NCBI GenBank assembly: GCA_044070495.1
Contig: JBIPSI010000007.1
Coordinates: 64,001 to 128,000, forward strand
Direction of reading: 5' to 3'
Length of the DNA: 64,000 nt
From: Spirulina sp.
GTDB lineage: Bacteria > Cyanobacteriota > Cyanobacteriia > Phormidesmidales > Phormidesmidaceae
Shown piece after piece: positions 32,701-59,231 of the stretch. The notes below the pieces were generated by a model that was not told where the DNA came from, did not search any database, and was given only the letters and a program-made list of their open reading frames with translations. Position 1 is the stretch's first letter. The number at the start of each line of letters is the position of its first letter. Made by a program: the position numbers and the translations under genes.

Positions 32701-34025
32701 TCGTCGGCATCGGCGTCCCTAAAGCTGCCCGACACCGTAATCTGACCACCCTCGTTAATACTGCTTTGGTTCGTGGTTAGCCCGGTGATGATCGGGGCTT
32801 CGTTGACATCCAAAATGTTGACGGTGACCAACTGCTCGTTGCTTAGCCCCCCGGCATCGGTGGCCCGCACCAACAGGTTATAGGCGGTGGCAAAGGTTTC
32901 AAAGTTGAGATCGTCCGCATCGTTGACGGTGATCGCCCCCGTGCTGGCGTTAATCAGAAAGGCTCGGTTGCCGTCGTTGTCGTTGTCGGGGTTGCCCGAC
33001 ACCAGCGACCAGGTCAGTCCGGGCTCGTTGGCGGTTACCGTACCCACCGCCACCCCATTGGCCGAGTGCTCGTTAATGTTAAAGACTTGGTTCGGCGTAA
33101 TCTGCGGGGCCGTATTCAGGTTGAGCTGTACCGCCCCCGTGGCCGACCCTACCCCATCCACCGCAAAGTAGTAGGTGGTGCCCGCCACGGCGGTAAAGGT
33201 CACCTGGCTCTTGAGGTTGCTGCCGCTGATGTTGTCGTTAAAAGCCACCTGGTTAAGGCTGTTGACGGAACCGCCCGTATACACCGCCAGCACCGTGTTG
33301 TTGAGGGCGCTGCCGATGGTATCCAACGTAATCAGCCCCGTGGTGGTCGCCGTCCACTGCCACCAGATCGAATTGTTGAGGCTCTCCTGCACGGACTGGT
33401 TCAATCCGCTTACATTGGGGTCGTGGATGGGTTCGCCCAACTGGTGGGTCGCCCCTACGGTGGTTCCGGTGTTGGTGCTGGGCGTCCACACCGTGGCACC
33501 AGCAAAGTTGTCGGTTCCCAGCACCGCTCGGTATTGGGCCGCCAAAGCAGCACCGACCAACAACCGAGGCGAAACCTGCCCCACGGTGGTATCGAGCCGC
33601 CAGTCGCCCCCCAAATCGCCATGGCCCACCAGCCGAGGGGAAGCCGCAACCCCTGCCCCGGTCAAATGGTGGATTCTCGCCAAAAACTCAGCCCCGGCAT
33701 CCCCCGCCGCCACCTGACAACCGTAGAGGTAAATTTGGGGCGAGGAATCGGTGGCGAACCAGTGACCTAGGGCCTCGGTGTAGCGATCCAGGCTGTCCAA
33801 ATCCAGGTGGGTGTTGCCTAGGCTGAGGCGTCCCGGCGCACCGTGGGCCACCACAATCAGGGTATCCGTTGGGTGATGCCCCAGGGCCTCGGTGATCACC
33901 GCCACCCCATCCTCATCGGCCTGGATAACGCGGAGAGAACCCTGGCCGCCTAGCTCATCCATCAAGCGCCAGCATTCATCTACCTGAGAATCGACAACAA
34001 TGAGAGGACTAGGGTAGTTTGCCAT
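23757..34025 (-). CDS. Giant adhesin-like protein: DUF4347, cadherin/PKD/Ig repeats, about 17 cadherin-like repeats, C-terminal FG-GAP repeats
   Basis: 3422 aa; AHGAPG..LYGCQVA..GGDWRL (DUF4347), TVTIxWGDG (PKD), VNDxP linkers, NxLTIxEG...FTQ..I..G.V.FVHxG repeats, DFNNDGxxDVxW tail. Confidence 0.88.
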   Translation of the reverse strand: MANYPSPLIVVDSQVDECWRLMDELGGQGSLRVIQADEDGVAVITEALGHHPTDTLIVVAHGAPGRLSLGNTHLDLDSLDRYTEALGHWFATDSSPQIYLYGCQVAAGDAGAEFLARIHHLTGAGVAASPRLVGHGDLGGDWRLDTTVGQVSPRLLVGAALAAQYRAVLGTDNFAGATVWTPSTNTGTTVGATHQLGEPIHDPNVSGLNQSVQESLNNSIWWQWTATTTGLITLDTIGSALNNTVLAVYTGGSVNSLNQVAFNDNISGSNLKSQVTFTAVAGTTYYFAVDGVGSATGAVQLNLNTAPQITPNQVFNINEHSANGVAVGTVTANEPGLTWSLVSGNPDNDNDGNRAFLINASTGAITVNDADDLNFETFATAYNLLVRATDAGGLSNEQLVTVNILDVNEAPIITGLTTNQSSINEGGQITVSGSFRDADADDLHTVTISWGDGTSDVIGGANLAGPDADGNFSFANLRHTYQDNATYTITMTVEDASGLTSAPRTVAVVVNNVPPTITQGATLAISVNEDSPTTFTLNATDPGRLDTLTWDILNQASNGTASVSTSPTGRNQIISYLPNPDFAGTDTFEVQVADNNGGFDTIVVNVTVVPQPDPPRGLNILGDVATINEGDTFTLTGIFSDPDLGDTFTVTINWGDGTPAVVLSNGDVTNLGNGNYRFTTSHTYLADSGAGAFSISAIVRDSANLTVSDTLSLPVANVAPSIVQGAFLALSTDEDTPLTFDLDATDPADTTFQWSVVAQPPNGTVTFVTNPNGSGSQTLVFTPAANFDQNTSFDVQVSDGNGGVSIINVLVDVEPVNDDPTSLAITPDFTTINEGSSISLTGSFTDVDSGDSHTVTIDWGDGTPVTTLAATDLTLAGTTYTLPARSHTYADEGNYTVTVMVEDAAGAMTSRTQAITVNNVAPTITDAGGTAVPPSITLPLGQEDTPILFSLGAQDPGVTDTLQWRVSAAPNQGTVTILPAVAGQPQEFRYTPNPNVSGADFFTLELSDGDGGVDTVVVNLFLDAVNDLPVITANQFTITEGQPLLITQANLNATDIETFDPNLAFEITGLATGERFAVAGGSDNFFNLLDVIEGRVTFIDDGNETRPAFSITVRDGSTGGVVTTPANITFIPVNDAPVIGNRSFTVTEGQPTLITSASLSATDEELALTNREGELQYTITRIEGGVIQVSGTTQTTFTQADIDGGRVTFVHGGEDIVPVLEYTVSDGLLSTPSSAVVTFINVNDPPRILANSLTLTEGDVVTITLQNIDATDPDNDDNTLIFDISGLNPAAGTFERRASSTTPFSPTTTFSRQDILNGNVRFVHSGNEVAPAYTLTVRDAEPLTASGPATVSFTTVNDIPIFGTNTLTIDEGQTLVLSGSNIATSDEETPATGLTYTVSGLSGGRFELVANPGTAITSFTQDDIDNSRVQFVHNGDEAAPTYTLTVSDGVNEVESEANIVFTNLNDAPNLINNRLTITEGQTRLITTTDINASDVEDNDNTLTFVVGQIAASVFVENDTFAGGEFQLKDGSGVFVKTSRFTREDIINQRVRFVHNGTETRPTYAIQVLDSDGGNTFRNAEVTFTSVNDLPVVQRNRLIIEEEGAFLFNADPLNPDLVTTDEETLDKTQIVYTVTAVTAGQFEDVSNAGVAITSFTQQQLDDQTIRFVHNGTEETPSYTLSVSDSTGGVVTSNGNVTFTNVNDAPTFTANSFDLTEGGTLVLSTANINATDVESLDTNLRFDITAVTGGRFERVSAPGTAILSFTLGDIILGDIQFTQPPADEETPPTYTITVTDDDPTTPRTTTQVGTVNFTPINDAPTIVANTLTIAEGGTVIFGDGVTGGTTGGVLRASDPETPAGELRFEVSSVVGGQFELTSTPGTAVFSFTQAQVTANQVRFVQNGTSVVPNYTVTVKDPQDLTGTGTPTVTFTDVNDPPAITRNTLTITEGQTVVLGSANLQYSDEESSPAQVTYTVTGVTAGQFERVATPGTAITSFTQAEVNAGAIQFVHNGTETPPTYTLTLTDGGSVSGAPLTTAPSNATIDFSRVNDRPTIGTNTLTIAEEGSVVLNALGTNLTASDEETAVLDLVYVVDAVTNGRFELTTAPGTAITTFTQVQLNSGEVRFVHDPASGETPPTYTLRAQDSEGALSDPSDATITFNRVNDNPVFSVNALTITEGTTVTLTTANLLSSDEEDGVADLTYSIVGTVTGGKFVLASDPTQTAITSFTQAQVEAAAIQFVHDGTETAPAYTLRVTDSETGFAERSATITFEPVNDDPVFSVNTLTLNEGQTVVLGIANLLTEDEESGDADLTYQVQSVTNGRFERVATPGTAITSFSQDDVANGRVQFVHSGSEQAPTYTLVVTDGDGATVTRASTINFTNLNDPPTFQASNLTVTEGATVTLDLSNINATDPDHPDDQIVYSVTNVVGGSFFFNGAALTPATTFNAVDLSLGRLTFVDDGNNAPPTFDLVATDPDGDATTVAATVTFTALNDAPVLAVNQFTITEGQPLVLSDANLRATDEETTDPTRLIYRVRNVTGGGFFTIPDGDEVFTFTQAQINAGNEIVFRHDGSETTPAFTLEVTDPNGGTSGQVPAVITYNRVNDAPVFSRNVLTIAEGQTVVLSTSDITVSDIDTPLSLLTFTVDTVQNGFFTVDGTVLAAGDTFTRTQLVLGQVSFTASDDGLTPAYTLTVNDNDPLGSRPATRVATVNFTPVNDLPQITVNNFPITEGRNLELSTANLDATDEETTNRSQLVYTVSGLQGGVFFNVGTGSNVTSFSQLDVDNRLIFFRHNGSETPAAFTLSLADGSGGTTVAPGNVIFTPTNDPPVLSINAFPVTEGGTLKLSATNLSVVDPDNTPAQLRYTVGGLAGGQFSRDTNLDGVPDAPGITTFSQQDVLDGLIFFVHDGNEAAPSFTLTLTDGTVTLPAVPANVTFTRVNDAPESVVLTLSTTTINEGSAVILNGTFVDVDSTVHTVTVNWGNGTTTTIPTSQIVNNGGGNFSLPAVNRTYADDGVFVITVTVNDGQATAQGTTTVTVNDVPPTIALSGSGPVKANSPYTLTIGTPVDPGDDQYVAFQVDWGDGTTSTATQPGDVTKVYKAFGTYTITVTAIDNQGQSFSGGTETATILYPITDFTGNGLPDVFWRFEPGVDNVIWTLDASGNLTNGLPVRPLDSAFSIQSVADFNNDGRNDVFWRNSASGDMGIWLMDGATVQGGILLPVVDPTWSIVGFTDFNNDGSQDVLWRNVTGANVIWTLQAGELVDGVVLPSLDPSFEMAALTDINQNGFDDIVWRNPTTGQNLVWLMNGTTFSSDTNLTAVDPAYDLVATADFTGDGIEDFVWQHQFAPAVVVWEMGPNGTIANGVLLPALDPAYELRGATDLNGDNQTDLLWRNPTTGDTFAWAMNGTTVASTIDYPDPPAGWQVYV

Positions 34026-51379: not shown

Positions 51380-52102
51380 ATGCAGCGGATTATTATCCAG
51401 CCCGACCAAATTCAGGACCATCACCTCACCCTTACCGCCGATCAGCAGCATTACCTCCATCGAGTGCTGCGGCTGGTGGCGGGGGATCGGTTTATGGCCC
51501 TGGATGGTCAAGGTCAACAGTGGGTGGCGACGTTGGGTAAGGATCCTGGATTCGCCCACCTCGCCCCCTTGGCAACGGCTGCCCCTGTTCTGCCAAACGT
51601 CACCCTAGCCATCGCGCTCCCCAAGGGCAGCGGCTTTGACGATGTGGTGCGCCAAACCACCGAGATCGGCGTGGACACCCTACAACCGTTGATTACCCAG
51701 CGCACCCTGCACCAGCCCAACCTCAAAAAGCTGGAACGCTGGCAGCGCATTGCCGCCGAAGCCACCGAACAATGCGAGCGTCCCAACCTGCCGAACCTTC
51801 AGTCACCCATGCCCTGGGCCGACTACCTGCGCCAAGACCTGCCCCCCCAGCGCTGGATCTGCCTTGCCCGTGGAGAATCCCAGCCCTTACTCACCGTCGC
51901 CCAGGCTAGCGATCCCAACCTCGGCACCGTGATCGCCATCGGGCCAGAGGGGGGCTGGACAGAGGCCGAAATCACTGCCGCCCTCGCCGCCGGATTTCAG
52001 CCCGCTTCCCTAGGGCCAACGGTGCTCCGGGCCGTGACTGCCCCCATGGTGGCCCTGGCCCTGGCCCTGGCTGGCCTTGATTCAGGGAATCCGCAGCGGT
52101 AA
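51380..52102 (+). CDS. rsmE: 16S rRNA m3U1498 methyltransferase
   Basis: HYLHRVLRL, TEIGV, RWQRIAAEATEQCER, IGPEGGW, LGPTVLRAVTA. Confidence 0.95.
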   Translation: MQRIIIQPDQIQDHHLTLTADQQHYLHRVLRLVAGDRFMALDGQGQQWVATLGKDPGFAHLAPLATAAPVLPNVTLAIALPKGSGFDDVVRQTTEIGVDTLQPLITQRTLHQPNLKKLERWQRIAAEATEQCERPNLPNLQSPMPWADYLRQDLPPQRWICLARGESQPLLTVAQASDPNLGTVIAIGPEGGWTEAEITAALAAGFQPASLGPTVLRAVTAPMVALALALAGLDSGNPQR

Positions 52103-52179
52103 GCCGCCATGCCCTGAGGCCCTAGCGCCTTTAGAATAGAGAGGTCATTTTACGTTGCGTCTAACGCCGTTCTTGCCCT

Positions 52180-52461
52180 ATGCCGCCCCGCTGGCCCCGT
52201 AAACCCACCCGCGAAGATCCCGCCTACCGTCGCCTAGAAGACCGCATCAACTTTGCGGTGCATGTGGCGGCCTTCATTGCCGTCAATTCTGGGCTGTGGT
52301 TTTTCCATACCCTCAACCCCGCCTGGGTAAGCTGGGTGCAGTGGGTTACCCTGGCTTGGCTCCCCGCCCTGGTGGGGCACGGCATCTACATCTTCGCCAT
52401 TGCCGATTATTCGCCCATCCCCCTATCCCCCGTAGAACCCAACGATCCAGGAGAGGTTTAA
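52180..52461 (+). CDS. Cyanobacterial 2TM domain protein
   Basis: MPPRWPRKP.R.DPAYRRLEDRINFAVH; two TM helices. Confidence 0.8.
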   Translation: MPPRWPRKPTREDPAYRRLEDRINFAVHVAAFIAVNSGLWFFHTLNPAWVSWVQWVTLAWLPALVGHGIYIFAIADYSPIPLSPVEPNDPGEV

Positions 52462-52463
52462 CC

Positions 52464-52772
52464 ATGGCTAGCGCCGGAAGCAGTCGCGCAATTGAAGCCC
52501 TCGCCGCCGCCATTGGCGATCAAGCCTATATCGATGTGGCCAAGTGGCATCTCTACCTCGGCGATGCCAAACTCCATACGTCCTTAGCCGAACGGATCTA
52601 TCCGCTCATTGATGACGGCACCTTTGATGAATCGGCCCTAATGGATGTCCTGGCTAGCTTTTCCGTCGCCCTGGGGGGAGGCAAGAAAACCGTTTCCCTC
52701 GCCGATCTGATTCCGTCGGGCAGTCAGGCCGATCTACTCCGCGCCATCGAAGACTACCAGCGAGATCGGTAA
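52464..52772 (+). CDS. DUF3181 family protein
   Basis: IEALAAAIG..YIDVAKWHLYLGDAKL, LGGG..LADLIP. Confidence 0.8.
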   Translation: MASAGSSRAIEALAAAIGDQAYIDVAKWHLYLGDAKLHTSLAERIYPLIDDGTFDESALMDVLASFSVALGGGKKTVSLADLIPSGSQADLLRAIEDYQRDR

Positions 52773-52821
52773 CGTTACCCCCCATCCACACGCCTACTTC
52801 TATGGATAGGAGAACATTTCC

Positions 52822-53172
52822 ATGCCACTAATCAAGGTGCAAACCTCGGTACCCTCCCCCGATAAGGCCCAAGTGGAGAGCCTGCTGAAGGATCTGTCGG
52901 CCCGCTTGGCCAGCCATTTGGGCAAGCCCGAATCCTACGTGATGACCTCCTTCACCGCCGATGTACCCATGACCTTTGCGGGCACCACCGACCCCGTCTG
53001 CTACATCGAAATCAAAAGCGTCGGCACGATGGGCAGCAAAACCAAAGCCATGAGCCAAGATTTCTGTACCCAGGTGGAAAGCGCCCTTGGCGTACCGAAA
53101 AATCGGGTGTATATCGAATTTGCCGATGCCCCAGGGGCCATGTGGGGCTGGAACGGCGGCACCTTTGGGTAG
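52822..53172 (+). CDS. MIF/phenylpyruvate tautomerase family protein
   Basis: N-terminal Pro (MPLI), GKPESYVM, IKSVG, RVYIEF, WGWNGGTF. Confidence 0.92.
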   Translation: MPLIKVQTSVPSPDKAQVESLLKDLSARLASHLGKPESYVMTSFTADVPMTFAGTTDPVCYIEIKSVGTMGSKTKAMSQDFCTQVESALGVPKNRVYIEFADAPGAMWGWNGGTFG

Positions 53173-53199
53173 ATTTATGGTTAACGCAAAGTCCTCGCA

Positions 53200-53293
53200 G
53201 CCCTCACCCTAAATCCCTCTCCCCAAGGGAGAGGGACTTTGAAACAGGTTCTGGCTCCCCTCTCCCACAGGGAGAGGGGCTGGGGGTGAGGGC
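53200..53293. repeat. CCCTCTCCC..GGGAGAGGG palindromic repeat pair
   Basis: GCCCTCACCCTAAATCCCTCTCCC..GGGAGAGGG ... CCCTCTCCC..GGGAGAGGGGCTGGGGGTGAGGGC; same family as 39665-39751. Confidence 0.8.
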
Positions 53294-53335
53294 CATACCG
53301 TAGGTTGCCGTGGTTTTGTCATGGACTGAACTGGC

Positions 53336-55918
53336 CTAAAAGGGCACATCCTTATCGGGGTGGGAGGGCTGATGAGCCGCTGCCTTAGAGGGTTTTGGAC
53401 TAGGGCCACCCAGCAGCGCATCGAGGTCGTCGTCAATATCTACCACCTGCCCATTGAAAAACTGGGCAAAGTTCTTCACGGCCCGATCAAAGTCGCTGGC
53501 GATCTCCGGCAGGGGTGGCCTTGTGGGTATGGCGTTGGCCATCGGAGCAGATGGGGCCGAGTTCCCATTGGCAGGTACGGGCGCAGCCACGGGGGCAGCA
53601 GCCGGGATGGAAGTGTTGGTTTCTGCGGTTTGGGACGGGTTGACCACAGGGGCAGGAACCGCATTGGTCGGGGGATGCGGCGGGTAGGGCGGGTAGGGCG
53701 TAGCAGGCGGCTCGGATACCCCCTGCCCCGGTGCCTGGGAAATGTTGGGGGCTGGGGCCTCAGGCTTTGGGTCGGGCAGCACCTCCAGGGAAACCACCAC
53801 TTTTCGATTCAGCACTTTCTGGAAGGCCGCTTCCACATTTTCGACCCTGCCCTGGGCCATCTTAAACAGGGGCCGAGAGCTAATCCCCACCCTGGCCACA
53901 GACCCATCAAAAAAGACTAGGCTACCCTGCTGAAGCATCAACGCACGGGTACCCAGGGGTTCTAAGACCGCAATCACCTGCGCCCACAGATGGGGTAAAT
54001 CGGCATTCGCGACGGTGGCACCCTGGCCATTATTCGGCGGCGGCGGAATATAATCCGATGCGGGTACTGGCGTTGGTTCTGCGGGGCGATCCGCTTGGGG
54101 TTGTGCCGCTGGGGGCCGATCTGGCGTGGACTGATCTGGCGGCGGGGCTGGCGTTGGCGGCGGCGTGAAAGCCGTCGTCGGTGGCGGAGCGCTGGGAGTA
54201 ATGGTTCTCTCCGGTGCGGGGGCGGCAGGTTGAGAAGACACCGCCGGACGAGGAGCCATACCCATAGCGGGACTCGTCGTAACCAAACTGGCTAGGGTCG
54301 ATGGCAACAGCCCTAATAATGTGACCTCTAGCCAAAGGCGCGGCTGGGTGGTGTTTTTCACCTGGGCTTCGGCACTGCGGAGGTGCTGTTGGCCCATCAG
54401 CAACAGGGGGGTATCCAGGGCTTGAACCAAAGTCTGCATGTCAGCCCAGGTGGGGGGCGTGATGGCTACCAAATCCTGACGACCGCCCGCCGTTTTGGCA
54501 ATCAGCAAATCTCGGTAGAACCCGGCCAAATTTTGCAGCACAATCAGCGGCTCTCGGCCCCGATCCATCAATTTACGGGCCTGGTCTAAAACCGTGCTGC
54601 CATCATCGCTGAGGATGGCCTGCACCAGGGCCAGCAAATCCCGCTCTGGCACCGCCCCCACCAAATCCCACACGGCATCGGCGGTGATGGGCGGCTCTAG
54701 CAAACTGAGCTGATCCAGCAAACTCTGGGCATCCCGCAAGCCCCCCTGAGACACCTGGGCCACCAGCCGCAGGGCTTCATCGTTAATGGCAATCTCTTCC
54801 TGAGTGGCGATGTTCCGCAGGTGGAGAATCATCGGCTCTAGGGGAATGCGCCGATAATCAAACCGCTGACAGCGAGAAATGATCGTCGGCAACACCCGCT
54901 GGGGATCGGTTGTGGCCAGCACAAACACCACATTGCTGGGCGGCTCCTCCAGGGTTTTCAGCAGGGCATTGAACGCGGCGGTACTCAACATGTGGCAGTT
55001 GTGCACCAGCAAGCTATTGGCCACAAAGTTGTGGTTGTCTTCCACCTCAATGTCGTAAACCGCCTCAACCCCAGCGGGGCGGACAGATACGACCGTCTCC
55101 AAATTTGTAGCCCATAGCTGGGATTGAGATTTATCGAGCAGCGCTGTAGGACTTTTGGCCGTAGGTGTTGCCCTTAAATTGGTGTCCCCGAACGAAGCGG
55201 CGCGGTCGGTGGTCGGAGCCAACGGCAGGGATGAGGGTGCCGCATCCACAGGCGCAGGGGATAAGATTTGGTGCCCTGCTTGAAGTTCTCCGGCGGCTAT
55301 CCATCCTTCCGTTGTCCTAATCAAATGATTCTCAGTACATCGGATCCGACGATGGGTGGTCTGAATGTCCAAGATGGGACGAACACCTTGGTCTAGCCAG
55401 CGCACCGCCCGCTTAAATTCCCATTGTTGAGATGCTTCGTTGTAGCTGAGTACCTGTTTTCCCTCAATGGTGGGGTCGTCAATCCTCATGGGGCCATCGG
55501 CGGTGAGAACGAGGGAATCTCCGGTCAGGCACTCGTCGATCACGTAAACCTTGTACCGACACTGCACTGGGGCAAACTGGGCGCGTTCGATTAGTTCCCG
55601 GATGTTGTCCACCCCGGTGTTGCTGGCGGCGTCGATTTCAATGAAATCCAGCGCTGAACCGTTGGTGATGGAACGGCAGGTTTCGCAGGTGCCGCAGGGT
55701 TCGGGGGTAGGGTGGTCTTGGTTGATGCAGTTGAGGGATTTGGCCAAAATCCGGGCGCTGGAAGTTTTGCCCGTGCCCCTGGGGCCACAGAACAGGTAGG
55801 CCGGAGCAATCCGTTGCTGGTTGAGGGCGTTGGACAGCGTGGTGGCAATGGCATCTTGGCCCACCAGTTGGTTAAACCGCTGGGGACGATACTTGTGGTG
55901 CAGGGGTTCGTAGGCCAT
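53336..55918 (-). CDS. dnaX: DNA polymerase III gamma/tau with intein
   Basis: YEPLHHKYRPQ, GPRGTGKTS, EIDAASN, YVIDE|intein|CHMLSTAAFNALLKTLEEPP. Confidence 0.97.
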   Translation of the reverse strand: MAYEPLHHKYRPQRFNQLVGQDAIATTLSNALNQQRIAPAYLFCGPRGTGKTSSARILAKSLNCINQDHPTPEPCGTCETCRSITNGSALDFIEIDAASNTGVDNIRELIERAQFAPVQCRYKVYVIDECLTGDSLVLTADGPMRIDDPTIEGKQVLSYNEASQQWEFKRAVRWLDQGVRPILDIQTTHRRIRCTENHLIRTTEGWIAAGELQAGHQILSPAPVDAAPSSLPLAPTTDRAASFGDTNLRATPTAKSPTALLDKSQSQLWATNLETVVSVRPAGVEAVYDIEVEDNHNFVANSLLVHNCHMLSTAAFNALLKTLEEPPSNVVFVLATTDPQRVLPTIISRCQRFDYRRIPLEPMILHLRNIATQEEIAINDEALRLVAQVSQGGLRDAQSLLDQLSLLEPPITADAVWDLVGAVPERDLLALVQAILSDDGSTVLDQARKLMDRGREPLIVLQNLAGFYRDLLIAKTAGGRQDLVAITPPTWADMQTLVQALDTPLLLMGQQHLRSAEAQVKNTTQPRLWLEVTLLGLLPSTLASLVTTSPAMGMAPRPAVSSQPAAPAPERTITPSAPPPTTAFTPPPTPAPPPDQSTPDRPPAAQPQADRPAEPTPVPASDYIPPPPNNGQGATVANADLPHLWAQVIAVLEPLGTRALMLQQGSLVFFDGSVARVGISSRPLFKMAQGRVENVEAAFQKVLNRKVVVSLEVLPDPKPEAPAPNISQAPGQGVSEPPATPYPPYPPHPPTNAVPAPVVNPSQTAETNTSIPAAAPVAAPVPANGNSAPSAPMANAIPTRPPLPEIASDFDRAVKNFAQFFNGQVVDIDDDLDALLGGPSPKPSKAAAHQPSHPDKDVPF
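54998..55531 (-). other. DnaX mini-intein (178 aa, no in-frame endonuclease)
   Basis: Starts CLTGDSLV after E129, block B CTENH, ends VYDIEVEDNHNFVANSLLVHN before Cys. Confidence 0.93.
55131..55304 (-). CDS. 57-aa out-of-frame ORF nested in the DnaX intein (CxCGCG motif)
   Basis: MDSRRRTSSRAPNLIPCACGCGTLIPAVGSDHRPRRFVRGHQFKGNTYGQKSYSAAR; purine-rich AGGACAACGGAAGG before the ATG. Confidence 0.55.
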   Translation of the reverse strand: MDSRRRTSSRAPNLIPCACGCGTLIPAVGSDHRPRRFVRGHQFKGNTYGQKSYSAAR

Positions 55919-55971
55919 AGCATTAAGATACCCTGCCTACCCAACCTTGGGCCAAGGCCAAGACGTTAGCC

Positions 55972-56472
55972 TTAGGAATCGCTTTGCCAATGCTCTGGAA
56001 ACTCAACAATTAAGGTGTCCATCTCCGCAATGCTACAGCCAGCCGGGACGGGGCAATTGCGGTTTACCTGGGATCGTTGCATCCGGGCTTGGGCCTGGTT
56101 AGCCAACTGTCGCACCTGCTCAACGGCAGCGGAAATTTCCTGCTTTTGTACCTGCTCAGGGGGCGCTTGGGCCGTGGCTGGGGCCAAGGTGGCGGCGGTG
56201 GCGGCGACTGGGGGAACCGTGGGTCTGGGTGACGCTGGCGCTGGGCGAGACTGGCGAGGAATGTAGCCCTGAAAGTAGGCAATGGCCAGCCGTCGAAACA
56301 AGATCTTCAGGTGATCGGGGAGCGATTTCTCGACCTGATCGGGCTTTTCCACAAGATCAACAATTTGCCCCATGGCGTGGGCAATCAGGGTATTATCTTG
56401 GCGGCTGGTGGGGTAAGTATCTTTGAGATCAAGCCAACAGGCTTCAAAAGCCTCAAGTTCGCGTAGCAGCAT
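55972..56472 (-). CDS. Hypothetical protein
   Basis: 166-aa ORF filling the gap upstream of dnaX; no family recognised. Confidence 0.55.
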   Translation of the reverse strand: MLLRELEAFEACWLDLKDTYPTSRQDNTLIAHAMGQIVDLVEKPDQVEKSLPDHLKILFRRLAIAYFQGYIPRQSRPAPASPRPTVPPVAATAATLAPATAQAPPEQVQKQEISAAVEQVRQLANQAQARMQRSQVNRNCPVPAGCSIAEMDTLIVEFPEHWQSDS

Positions 56473-56652
56473 GGGATCACCTGGGCAGCAGGTAGATGTG
56501 GGCCGTGACGAAACAGGTGCACCCGTCCCATGACCTGAGCGGTTGATGCTGGGGGAGAATGGGGTTCTTAATTATTAATGTGCCCTAAAATGGCCCCCTT
56601 CAGCCCTCCCCTAGCGTGAAGATTTGATGTATTGAGGAGTTGTAACAAATCC

Positions 56653-57138
56653 ATGGCGGTTGTCGAAAAAATCTATACCGATGGAGCCTGTTCCGGCAAT
56701 CCGGGGCCAGGGGGCTGGGGCACCGTGCTCTATTTTGCCGATGGCGGCATCCACGAACTGGGGGGTGGATCGCGCCAAACCACCAACAACCGCATGGAAA
56801 TGCAGGCCGCCATTGCCGGACTAACCTGGCTGCGAGACAGCGGCCAAACCCAGCCCGTCGCCATCTACACCGATAGCGAGTATGTGCTTAAGGGAATTAC
56901 CCAGTGGATCGCCGGATGGAAGCGGCGGGGCTGGGTGAATTCCGCCAAAAAGCCCGTTCTCAACCGCGACCTGTGGGAACAGCTTGACCAAGTCACCACC
57001 GAGGTGAACAAAACCCTGGATAAGCCCTTGCAGTGGGTTTATGTGCGGGGGCATTCAGGCAACGTGGGCAACGAACGCTGCGACACCATTGCCCGTGCCT
57101 TTGCCGCCAACCGCCCCATTGACCTCACGACCCTCTAG
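56653..57138 (+). CDS. rnhA: Ribonuclease HI
   Basis: [48 protein letters not shown]. Confidence 0.96.
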
Positions 57139-57353
57139 GAATCCAGATCTCCCAGCGGGCTATCTATTTTGATGACGTGCGGCGATCTGTCCGAAATGCG
57201 GGGGGACGGGCTTGTATCTAATGCTCCGACGACGTGCACTCCCATCGTCGGGGAGGCCACTGGACGGCGAGGTTTGGCCGGAAACCCACCACCGCTCCCC
57301 TCGACCGATACTATTTATATGTAGAAAAAATTTGATCATTTGCGGGGGCTGCC

Positions 57354-58508
57354 GTGTTGCTATCAAAAGGGTTTGAAGTCGAGATGTACACGGGCACCCC
57401 CAGCGGGAACGTGGTCGGCCTGTCCGACCGCATTGTGGCTAACCTCAACGGCTTTGTGCGCGAACCCGACAGCCGCAATGTGGAATACACCACCCCGCCC
57501 CTCTGCCAGTACGAAAAGCTGCTGTGCGAACTGGTGCGCCCCCGCCATGAATTACGGCAATACCTGCACGGCCTGGGCGACTATACCCTCATTCCCGGCA
57601 GTACTCTTTCCCTTGGGCCAACGGATCGCTTCTTCCGTTCAGACCCCAGCAACCCCTACCACTCCTACATCGAGCAAACCTACGGCACCACCGTCGTCAC
57701 CGCCAGCATTCACATTAATATCGGCATTTCCGACCCCGAACTGCTGATGCGGGCCTGCCGCCTGGTGCGGGTAGAAGCGCCCCTCTACCTAGCCCTCACC
57801 GCTTCCTCCCCCTTCCTGAATGGGGAAGTCACGGGATCCCACTCTAGCCGCTGGCAGGTGTTCCCCAAAACCCCCGCCGATGTGCCCTTGTTTGAGAGCC
57901 ACCTGCACCACATTCGCTGGATGGAGGAGCAACTGGCGGTGGGCACCATGCAAAATGTGCGTCACCTGTGGTCTTCGGTGCGGCCCAATGGCGACCGTCG
58001 CCCCTACAGCCTCAACCGCCTAGAACTGCGAATCTGCGACCTGATTAGCGACCCCATCGCCCTCCTAGCGGTGACCGCGTTGCTAGAGGCCCGTCTGATT
58101 CAGATGATGCAGAACCCCGATCTCGATCCCCTGCTACAGAGCCAGTTTCCCCAGGACAGCCGCAACCACGATCTCGTCCTCCTTAGCGACGCTAACGAAA
58201 TGGCCGTCGCCAAGCACAGCCTGGAGGCCGAGCTGCACCATTGGCAGGATGGTCGGCCCATTTTGGCTAAGGAATGGATCCAAAATCTCTATGATGAGGT
58301 GTGGCCCATCGCCAAGGCCAACGGGATTAGCTGTTTTCTCAGCCCGGTGAAGAAAATTTTGCGGGAAGGCAACGAGGCCCAGCACTGGCTGCGGCAGTAC
58401 GAGGCCGGACAGTCGGTGTCCGCTGTTCTGATGACGGCGATTCAAGCGGTTCAACACCAAGAGGATCAGTTGGCTAAGGATCTCTGTGAACCCTGTGTAG
58501 CGGCGTGA
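57354..58508 (+). CDS. gshA: Glutamate--cysteine ligase (cyanobacterial type)
   Basis: LLSKGFEVEMYTG, EPDSRNVEY, VVTASIHINIG, NVRHLWSSVRPNG, RLELRICD. Confidence 0.93.
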   Translation: MLLSKGFEVEMYTGTPSGNVVGLSDRIVANLNGFVREPDSRNVEYTTPPLCQYEKLLCELVRPRHELRQYLHGLGDYTLIPGSTLSLGPTDRFFRSDPSNPYHSYIEQTYGTTVVTASIHINIGISDPELLMRACRLVRVEAPLYLALTASSPFLNGEVTGSHSSRWQVFPKTPADVPLFESHLHHIRWMEEQLAVGTMQNVRHLWSSVRPNGDRRPYSLNRLELRICDLISDPIALLAVTALLEARLIQMMQNPDLDPLLQSQFPQDSRNHDLVLLSDANEMAVAKHSLEAELHHWQDGRPILAKEWIQNLYDEVWPIAKANGISCFLSPVKKILREGNEAQHWLRQYEAGQSVSAVLMTAIQAVQHQEDQLAKDLCEPCVAA

Positions 58509-58760
58509 TCGACAACGACCTCAGATCTCTCCACAACCCCGCTTGCCTCCGCCATGACCGTCAACGTGGGGCAATTGAATATAGATAACTTTAGGTTATA
58601 GCGGTCATCCTTCTCCGTTATCTGGTGCCATCGGTTCCCAGGTTGCCAGGGCATCCGGCTCAACGGATCAATTTGGCACCGAAAGATTAAACTTTTCTAT
58701 CGGTACTAGACATTGCTCCTGTTTTGTGATTTTAATTTTGACCCTCTGTTCACTGCCGTT

Positions 58761-59231
58761 ATGCCACGCCTCGTTCTTGTAAATCCTCAAATTCCGCCGA
58801 ATACTGGCAACATTGCCCGTACCTGCGCCGCAACCAATACACCGCTTCATCTGGTTGCCCCCCTAGGCTTTGATCTCAGCGACCGCTACCTCAAACGGGC
58901 TGGGTTAGACTACTGGCCCTATGTCAACCTCACCCTCCATGACGACTGGGTCGCCTTTGCCCAGCATCAACAAGCCATCGGCGGGCGAACCATGGCCTTC
59001 TGTACCTCTGGAACCCGTCGCTACACCGACGTTGCCTACCAACCCGATGACTGGCTTCTCTTTGGCAGCGAAACCGAGGGACTGCCTGCCACCGTGCTCC
59101 AACAGTGCACCCAGGTGGTTTCCATTCCGATGAATCGCCGTGCGGTGAGAAGCCTGAACTTGGCCAACAGTGCCGCCATCGGACTCTTTGAGGCCCTGCG
59201 CCAGATTGACTGTTGGCCCGAGGACACCTGA
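58761..59231 (+). CDS. trmL: tRNA (cytidine34-2'-O)-methyltransferase
   Basis: PQIPPNTGNIARTCA, LKRAGLDYW, FGSETEGLP, RSLNLANS. Confidence 0.93.
   Translation: MPRLVLVNPQIPPNTGNIARTCAATNTPLHLVAPLGFDLSDRYLKRAGLDYWPYVNLTLHDDWVAFAQHQQAIGGRTMAFCTSGTRRYTDVAYQPDDWLLFGSETEGLPATVLQQCTQVVSIPMNRRAVRSLNLANSAAIGLFEALRQIDCWPEDT

Follow-up and report, generated by a model that had tools for sequence, protein, structure and literature searches.

Does a short, cysteine-rich open reading frame (ORF) which lies out of frame inside the intein of an essential gene encode a protein that has been retained, or is it what is left of a gene that has been lost? This question is raised by a 64,000-nt stretch of DNA from the cyanobacterium Spirulina sp. 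(assembly GCA_044070495.1, contig JBIPSI010000007.1, positions 64,001 to 128,000), which is referred to as the window in the following and in which the dnaX gene carries a mini-intein. A first-pass annotation of the window had pointed to an ORF of 57 codons within this mini-intein and had offered two readings, an intermediate of endonuclease loss or a retained mini-protein. The analysis presented here favors the former. We consider it highly probable (roughly 93%) that the ORF is a relic, the 5' stump of a decayed homing-endonuclease gene which, in related cyanobacteria, is encoded at full length in the same alternative frame of the dnaX intein.

The ORF matches the N-terminus of a LAGLIDADG endonuclease

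The ORF is located wholly within the intein and occupies the +2 frame of dnaX, 614 nt past the start of that gene. Its coordinates, frame and translation agree with the initial description of a 57-aa ORF lying out of frame in the low-complexity linker of the intein, a segment whose DNA is read as SPAPVDAAPSSLPLAPTTDRAAS... in the intein frame. The ATG falls into a GGA TGG (Gly-Trp) of the intein frame, as it does in 59 of the 64 dnaX intein loci that were parsed for comparison (see below), and the purine-rich tract resembling a ribosome-binding site that had been reported to precede it is indeed present. A TAG is located four codons 5' of the ATG in the +2 frame, which leaves an open frame of 61 aa; because of this stop, the ORF cannot be entered by readthrough from far upstream. 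A programmed frameshift from the dnaX frame into the endonuclease frame, considered as a source of the endonuclease, was rejected in view of the same TAG. A scan for sigma-70 consensus sites between positions 54900 and 56100 returned 0 sites, a result of a consensus scan that is no evidence against an internal promoter.

The nature of the ORF is indicated by its homologues. In a search of a database of 5.8 billion sequences that was limited to longer proteins, the best homologue of the encoded peptide (P0001) was the N-terminus of a 331-aa PF03161 protein, with an expectation (E) value of 9.8e-27, 91% identity and 100% coverage. The peptide aligned with residues 1-57 of 12 longer proteins, ten of which are 330-331 aa in length and contain PF03161 (LAGLIDADG_2). 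Every homologue from this search is a long endonuclease or a fragment of one; among them is a hypothetical protein that bears an NCBI name from Leptolyngbya sp. PCC 6406. The 57-aa peptide itself gave nothing significant in Pfam, NCBIfam or PHROGs, the best matches being PCYCGC (E 0.16) and phrog_5395 (E 0.18), and a search of its own 97% complete genome revealed no second copy of either the ORF or the endonuclease, the only two other matches having E 1.01.

The full-length gene in relatives

A match to the 331-aa protein (P0003) was obtained in 9 of 61 genomes of relatives. In two of these (G027 and G032) the dnaX ORF is open over more than 1030 codons, the intein comprises 430 aa, and an ORF of 331 aa lies inside it in the +2 frame; the other long alleles have the same arrangement, a +2 endonuclease ORF within an open intein frame. 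Between the splicing lobes of the full-length alleles, the intein frame is of low complexity and free of stops, and the +2 frame encodes a well-conserved protein. This protein matches Pfam LAGLIDADG_2 (PF03161) with E 3.2e-18 and, by PDB profile, I-WcaI (6x1j) with E 4e-8, and its LAGLIDADG motifs are LGLIYGTLLGDG at about residues 128-139 and WWYMDDG at residues 233-239. An AlphaFold2 (AF2) model of the full-length protein reached a mean predicted local distance difference test (pLDDT) score of 84.1, and the top Foldseek matches of the model were I-WcaI and I-SceI (E 2e-10, target template modeling (TM) score 0.75-0.76). By these matches and this model, the full-length relatives are predicted to be monomeric LAGLIDADG enzymes of the I-SceI/I-WcaI type. 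The nearest phage relatives of the protein are H1/H2 (Xanthomonas phage FoX3, 27444-28070) and H5-H9 (Pectobacterium phages), with 26-33% identity over residues 69/91-323; they are located under or beside genes annotated as DNA helicase, which suggests that related endonucleases may reside in, or next to, phage helicase inteins.

An out-of-frame LAGLIDADG endonuclease in the +2 frame of cyanobacterial dnaX inteins, with a predicted fold overlaid on 6x1j, is described in the main text of a recent preprint (Phillips, DeSimone, Gogarten, bioRxiv, September 2026, 10.64898/2026.09.14.751524), which also reports Shine-Dalgarno motifs and purifying selection in the +2 frame as well as repeated loss of the endonuclease leading to mini-inteins. 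The preprint text credits Gorbalenya (1998, Nucleic Acids Res 26:1741) with first proposing alternative-frame endonuclease homologues and states that Liu (1997) had assumed an in-frame domain. The alleles of the relatives and the preprint both verify a statement of the first-pass annotation, namely that in longer cyanobacterial DnaX inteins a Cys/Gly domain is followed by a LAGLIDADG endonuclease encoded in an alternative frame. Literature searches returned no further paper on the out-of-frame dnaX-intein endonuclease. A term search of the main text of the preprint found neither 'remnant' nor 'zinc'; the Cys modules, like the ORFs left over in mini-inteins, may thus be undescribed details, though a direct consequence of the known arrangement.

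An in-frame deletion removed the endonuclease core

The genome of the window contains two directly adjacent matches to P0003 that share a frame, with residues 1-57 at positions 55134-55304 (91% identity over codons 1-57) and residues 310-331 at positions 55068-55133 (77% over codons 310-331). Alignment of the DNA with G027 and G032 yielded a single gap of 756 columns, and the net loss in the window amounts to 756 nt or 252 codons. When compared with G067, the closest full-length allele, and with G027, the 5' homology stops at position 55139 and the 3' homology restarts at position 55129. No microhomology was seen at the junction; nine unmatched nucleotides are found there instead. The 57-codon ORF is made up of endonuclease codons 1-55, two codons from the junction and a stop that likewise stems from the junction. 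Both LAGLIDADG motifs fall within the deleted codons 56-310, and the second of two Cys modules has been lost as well. As these parts are gone, no nuclease can be made from the remnant. The absence of the nuclease had been correctly anticipated, as also the lack of a Pfam match for P0001 attests, and the proposal of an intermediate of endonuclease loss describes the locus well, with codons 1-55 and the last 21 codons still flanking the deletion.

In comparison to the out-of-frame family, the window thus retains the frame, the start and the original stop, whereas the ORF is broken by the deletion and by the TAA. By all appearances, what the window holds is a pseudogene of the out-of-frame dnaX-intein endonuclease family and not a working member, and the label of a 'dual-coding' intein goes too far for this allele, as dual coding belongs to its full-length relatives. 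The deletion is a multiple of three, which is a requirement for dnaX to remain readable. An in-frame deletion automatically keeps the +2 frame in register, and open remnants of the endonuclease therefore need no selection. The features of the locus are compiled in Table 1.

Table 1. Positions of dnaX, its mini-intein and the endonuclease remnants in the window.
Feature	Position	Strand	Remarks
dnaX (DNA polymerase III gamma/tau)	53336..55918	-	860 codons, intein included; NCBIfam NF011510 E 4.9e-244, Pfam DNA_pol3_delta2 E 1.7e-40
DnaX mini-intein	54998..55531	-	178 aa; Cys1 ... His-Asn, then Cys+1; Pfam Intein_splicing (PF14890) E 2.1e-12
Purine-rich Shine-Dalgarno-like tract AGGACAACGGAAGG	55305..55318	-	directly before the ATG; read as R-T-T-E-G in the intein frame
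Reported ORF	55131..55304	-	57 aa (MDSRRRTSSRAPNLIPCACGCGTLIPAVGSDHRPRRFVRGHQFKGNTYGQKSYSAAR); ATG at 55304, TAA at 55131-55133
Surviving homing-endonuclease codons 1-55	55140..55304	-	alignment to G027/G032 and G067
Module 1 (codons 17-41), C-x-C-G-C-G ... R-R-F-x-R-G-H	55182..55256	-	putative Cys3-His metal site, from alignment
Deletion junction filler, 9 nt (CTCGATAAA)	55130..55138	-	matches neither flank of the full-length allele; holds the TAA at 55131-55133
3' endonuclease remnant, same +2 frame	55065..55129	-	last 21 codons (SIPAMGYKFGDGRICPPRWG region) and original TGA at 55065-55067

In many cyanobacteria, a dnaX intein of about 430 aa carries a LAGLIDADG gene of 331 codons overprinted in the +2 frame between the splicing lobes, the ATG lying within the GGA TGG of the N-terminal splicing domain and the stop within the start of the C-terminal splicing domain. 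In the lineage of the window, an in-frame event has most probably taken out a net 756 nt and turned the 430-aa intein into the 178-aa mini-intein with every splicing residue kept. Left behind in the +2 frame are codons 1-55, the 9-nt filler with a TAA that arose by accident, and a final stretch of 21 codons that ends with the original TGA. That the start codon, the Shine-Dalgarno-like tract and module 1 persist likely reflects a young deletion and the overlap of the first ~18 codons with intein sequence constrained by splicing.

The mini-intein and its host gene

The sequence of the mini-intein starts with CLTGD..., contains an IRCTENH block (T-x-x-H) and ends with ...LLVHN/CHM, so that the residues of a Class 1 intein (HINT), Cys1, T-x-x-H, the C-terminal His-Asn and the Cys at position +1 of the C-extein, are all present. 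A homologue of known structure is the Spl DnaX mini-intein (7cfv, 137 aa), which the intein of the window matches with E 1.6e-38. NCBIfam NF011510 matches dnaX in two stretches with the intein insertion between them, and the insertion site after VYVIDE is identical in all 64 parsed loci. In intein-free alleles from two public sequencing runs (X3 and X5) the exteins are joined exactly at 54997/55532, on loose contig ends, and both ends of the intein are thereby fixed. Since the splicing residues are intact and dnaX is an essential gene, the 178-aa mini-intein probably still splices.

Two other long ORFs run antisense to dnaX or out of frame in it: 53360..53920 (+ strand, 186 aa) and 55591..55944 (- strand, 117 aa). 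Such long nested or antisense ORFs are typical of GC-rich coding DNA and illustrate how little the mere length of an ORF says at this locus. Outside the window, another intein-like match (34% identity) was observed in the same genome (G000) on contig 32, positions 32792-33067, within an open frame of 1371 codons; it probably sits in another replication gene.

Survey of dnaX intein loci

For comparison, dnaX-type inteins were collected within the genus of the window and, by an even draw, across the class. A dnaX-type intein is present in 10 of 53 genomes of the genus, and 26 more gave only weak matches (E 1e-9 or worse) that were presumed to be other inteins. Of 401 genomes drawn from the class, 58 gave a match with E 1e-12 or better, two of them without the dnaX pattern. 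This resulted in 64 parsed loci; one further mini-intein, L047, was missed by the pattern and is not counted. The loci comprise 30 mini-inteins of 129-243 aa, nine inteins of 324-382 aa and 25 of at least 394 aa. Across the complete loci the length of the intein ranges from 129 to 512 aa with many different breakpoints, and the four mini-inteins of the window's genus (149, 178, 229 and 238 aa) have four different junctions. Many mini-inteins contain a short +2 ORF in which 17-25 codons from the start of the endonuclease are joined to 12-15 from its end. Such fused ORFs come as no surprise, since the endonuclease gene overlaps the splicing domains at either end and the register is held when a deletion is in frame. 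The canonical ATG requires that a Gly codon end in A, a choice that is silent in the intein frame. All 34 loci of at least 324 aa have this ATG, as do 25 of the 30 mini-inteins, the other five having GTG (two) or CTG (three). A whole module 1 from the canonical start is found in five mini-inteins, and in the other 25 it is lost or shortened.

Among the relatives the alleles form a series of full, point-mutated (G007), partly deleted, mini and intein-free forms, the full and the intein-free form occurring together in metagenome runs. In the point-mutated allele (L022) the 430-aa intein frame is open, and the +2 frame has a TAA at codon 48 and a changed first LAGLIDADG motif (LLGDRS), a case of decay by point mutation ahead of any deletion. 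A further genome, G202, has two dnaX-type intein loci. One of them (L058, contig 43) has a 430-aa intein with an intact 331-aa endonuclease; the other (L099, contig 8) has a 452-aa intein whose endonuclease frame is broken after 255 codons. This pair could represent two dnaX copies, two strains or contamination.

Cys modules

The earlier statement that a Cys/Gly module remains in the open ORF proved correct, as the putative ligands of module 1, C17, C19, C21 and H41, are all kept in the window. In the AF2 model of the full protein, this part (residues 11-43) has a pLDDT of 71-76 and forms two short beta strands. In module 2, C69, C71, C73 and H100/H106 are invariant in 31 aligned proteins. Five apparently intact endonucleases of 276 aa (L070, L075, L079, L085 and L086, in inteins of 376 aa) are devoid of module 1, and in one intact 331-aa endonuclease a Tyr replaces the first Cys of this module. 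On the basis of these proteins, module 1 appears to be accessory and dispensable even in working enzymes, and nothing indicates its retention after loss of the nuclease. The number of CxCGCG modules ahead of the LAGLIDADG core varies from one to three by lineage (L071 and L074, 355 aa; L091 and L063, 405-409 aa). The one-module form looks as if it had arisen by deletion from the CxCGCG motif of module 1 to its repeat in module 2. The Pfam family DUF6527 covers just the CxCGCG motif, with E 3.3e-7 in a protein that has three modules and E 0.029 in P0003. It was rejected as a name for the Cys modules, as only about 11-18 residues match and the papers listed for DUF6527 deal with bacterial ubiquitin-like systems.

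Relic or retained mini-protein

Several observations are not in perfect agreement with a simple relic. In the window, module 1 has kept all its putative ligands, and both the start codon and the Shine-Dalgarno-like tract are intact. When G027 is taken as the outgroup, none of the 165 nt of codons 1-55 has changed on the branch of the window compared to eight on that of G067. The ATG is kept in mini-inteins more often than would be predicted if the third position of this Gly codon had long been neutral, in a set of 30 loci that are related to one another and whose deletions may be young. In addition, the window and a related allele from run X1 (see below) differ at four sites within the ORF. 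Two of these changes are synonymous and two non-synonymous (S3R, H32R) when read in the +2 frame; in the intein frame, the numbers are one and three, respectively. The comparison covers the 28 differences that were listed of a total of 31, and the changes are too few to measure selection. The three-taxon polarisation gave 0, 8 and 13 lineage-specific changes and was rejected as evidence of constraint, since these are small numbers and polarisation is unreliable when an element is mobile. The intein branch of the window is short altogether, with changes at 4 of 227 nt 5' of the ORF (N-extein, 12 of 387 nt). At the rate of this branch about 2.9 changes would be expected in codons 1-55, and the Poisson probability of zero is about 0.05. 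We read the branch counts and the comparison with X1 as pointing to a young deletion; they cannot separate a young relic from a constrained gene. A metagenome scan for closer alleles with the same deletion found none close among 80 loci kept of 240 confirmed relatives, the best N-terminal identity being 72%.

A retained mini-protein, that is, a Cys-rich peptide of 57 aa which is translated and acts as a small metal- and DNA-binding protein, for example on the dnaX homing site, would be in line with the intact start, tract and ligands and with the unchanged codons 1-55. Within the genus, moreover, module 1 is at least largely preserved in all four mini-inteins. However, class-wide the whole module is found in only 5 of 30 mini-inteins and the start has drifted from ATG in five, and intact endonucleases, namely those of 276 aa, do without module 1, while in another one the first Cys of the module is replaced by Tyr. 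It is module 2 that is invariant, and this module is missing from the window; moreover, the ORF ends at a stop made by the junction filler and not at a conserved end. The peptide belongs to no Pfam, NCBIfam or PHROG family, its homologues among longer proteins are all long endonucleases or fragments, and in-frame deletions leave the +2 frame open without any need for selection. The mini-protein put forward as the second reading of the first-pass annotation gains no support from the analysis; we regard it as very improbable, and the peptide is presumably without function. A more specific version would be still more improbable, in which a 57-aa Cys3-His peptide is made from dnaX mRNA, binds the former target of the endonuclease (the intein-free dnaX site or the intein-extein joints) and acts as a regulator or as a blocker of re-invasion. 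If such a peptide were made and bound DNA, this would be a first step in domesticating a DNA-binding module of a homing endonuclease inside an essential gene.

The proposed endonuclease relic presupposes that the deletion is real. The genome is a draft of 74 contigs, and full-length alleles circulate in related samples, so it might be asked whether the intein is in truth full-length and the deletion was made by mis-assembly. Public sequencing runs were therefore compared over positions 54900-55650. In run X1, a single 11.5-kb contig spans this region and crosses the junction ungapped with 31 differences; with about 96% identity it represents an allele of its own, which shares the deletion. This independent contig rules out mis-assembly for practical purposes. 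Moreover, the dnaX frame is exactly preserved, and collapsed repeats would not give nine unmatched letters at the junction. Taken together, an artefact is very improbable. In contigs of X3, X5 and X15, the latter an RNA library, the matching breaks at 55129/55139, and the loose ends continue into the full-length endonuclease. The contigs of X15 stem from the full-length allele and not from that of the window, and contigs cannot show transcription or translation. In the metagenome runs X3 and X5, intein-free dnaX contigs occur along with contigs with a full-length intein, with 85-99% match to the flanks in the window; this fits the coexisting allele classes in the text of the preprint (10.64898/2026.09.14.751524).

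That the ORF arose by chance in GC-rich DNA and is unrelated to any gene is barely conceivable, as its length is indeed no better than chance (67 ORFs of at least 40 aa overlap the 7 kb of 52000..59000, many of them nested in real genes), but its match to endonuclease N-termini is far too strong (E 9.8e-27, 91% identity) and the relatives have the endonuclease ORF at the same place and in the same frame; on comparative grounds, it is homology and not length that makes the ORF real.

Implications and comparison with known systems

The window shows the ordinary decay of a selfish element whose arrangement has already been published, and adds one more decayed copy. Gene callers will continue to come across short Cys-rich ORFs in dnaX mini-inteins, and these can now be labelled remnants of the endonuclease instead of candidate micro-proteins. 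The allele series, which ranges from full and point-mutated alleles to partly deleted and mini ones and includes endonucleases with one, two or three Cys modules, could aid the study of how an overprinted gene decays under an open host frame.

The homing cycle of inteins and introns, reportedly laid out by Goddard and Burt in 1999, proceeds through invasion, fixation, decay of the endonuclease and loss. The window represents one stage of this cycle and exhibits no specific difference to it. With the monomeric, intron-encoded I-WcaI (6x1j) and I-SceI (1r7m), the full-length relatives are predicted by the model to share the fold, along with PF03161. The sequence identity is about 17%, and the proteins from dnaX have, in addition, between one and three CxCGCG modules at the N-terminus; nothing of the fold survives in the window. 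The Spl DnaX mini-intein (7cfv) is alike in the splicing domain, residues 2-99 of the window's intein aligning with residues 3-99 of the solved chain, whereas the intein of the window is 41 residues longer, which are the intein-frame reading of the endonuclease remnants. The closest counterpart is the out-of-frame dnaX-intein endonuclease of the preprint (10.64898/2026.09.14.751524). As far as its main text describes it, host gene, insertion site, +2 frame and Gly-Trp start are the same, with 91% identity over the surviving codons. In contrast, the window lacks 252 codons, module 2 and both LAGLIDADG motifs, and it is alleles of this kind that the preprint calls 'mini-inteins'.

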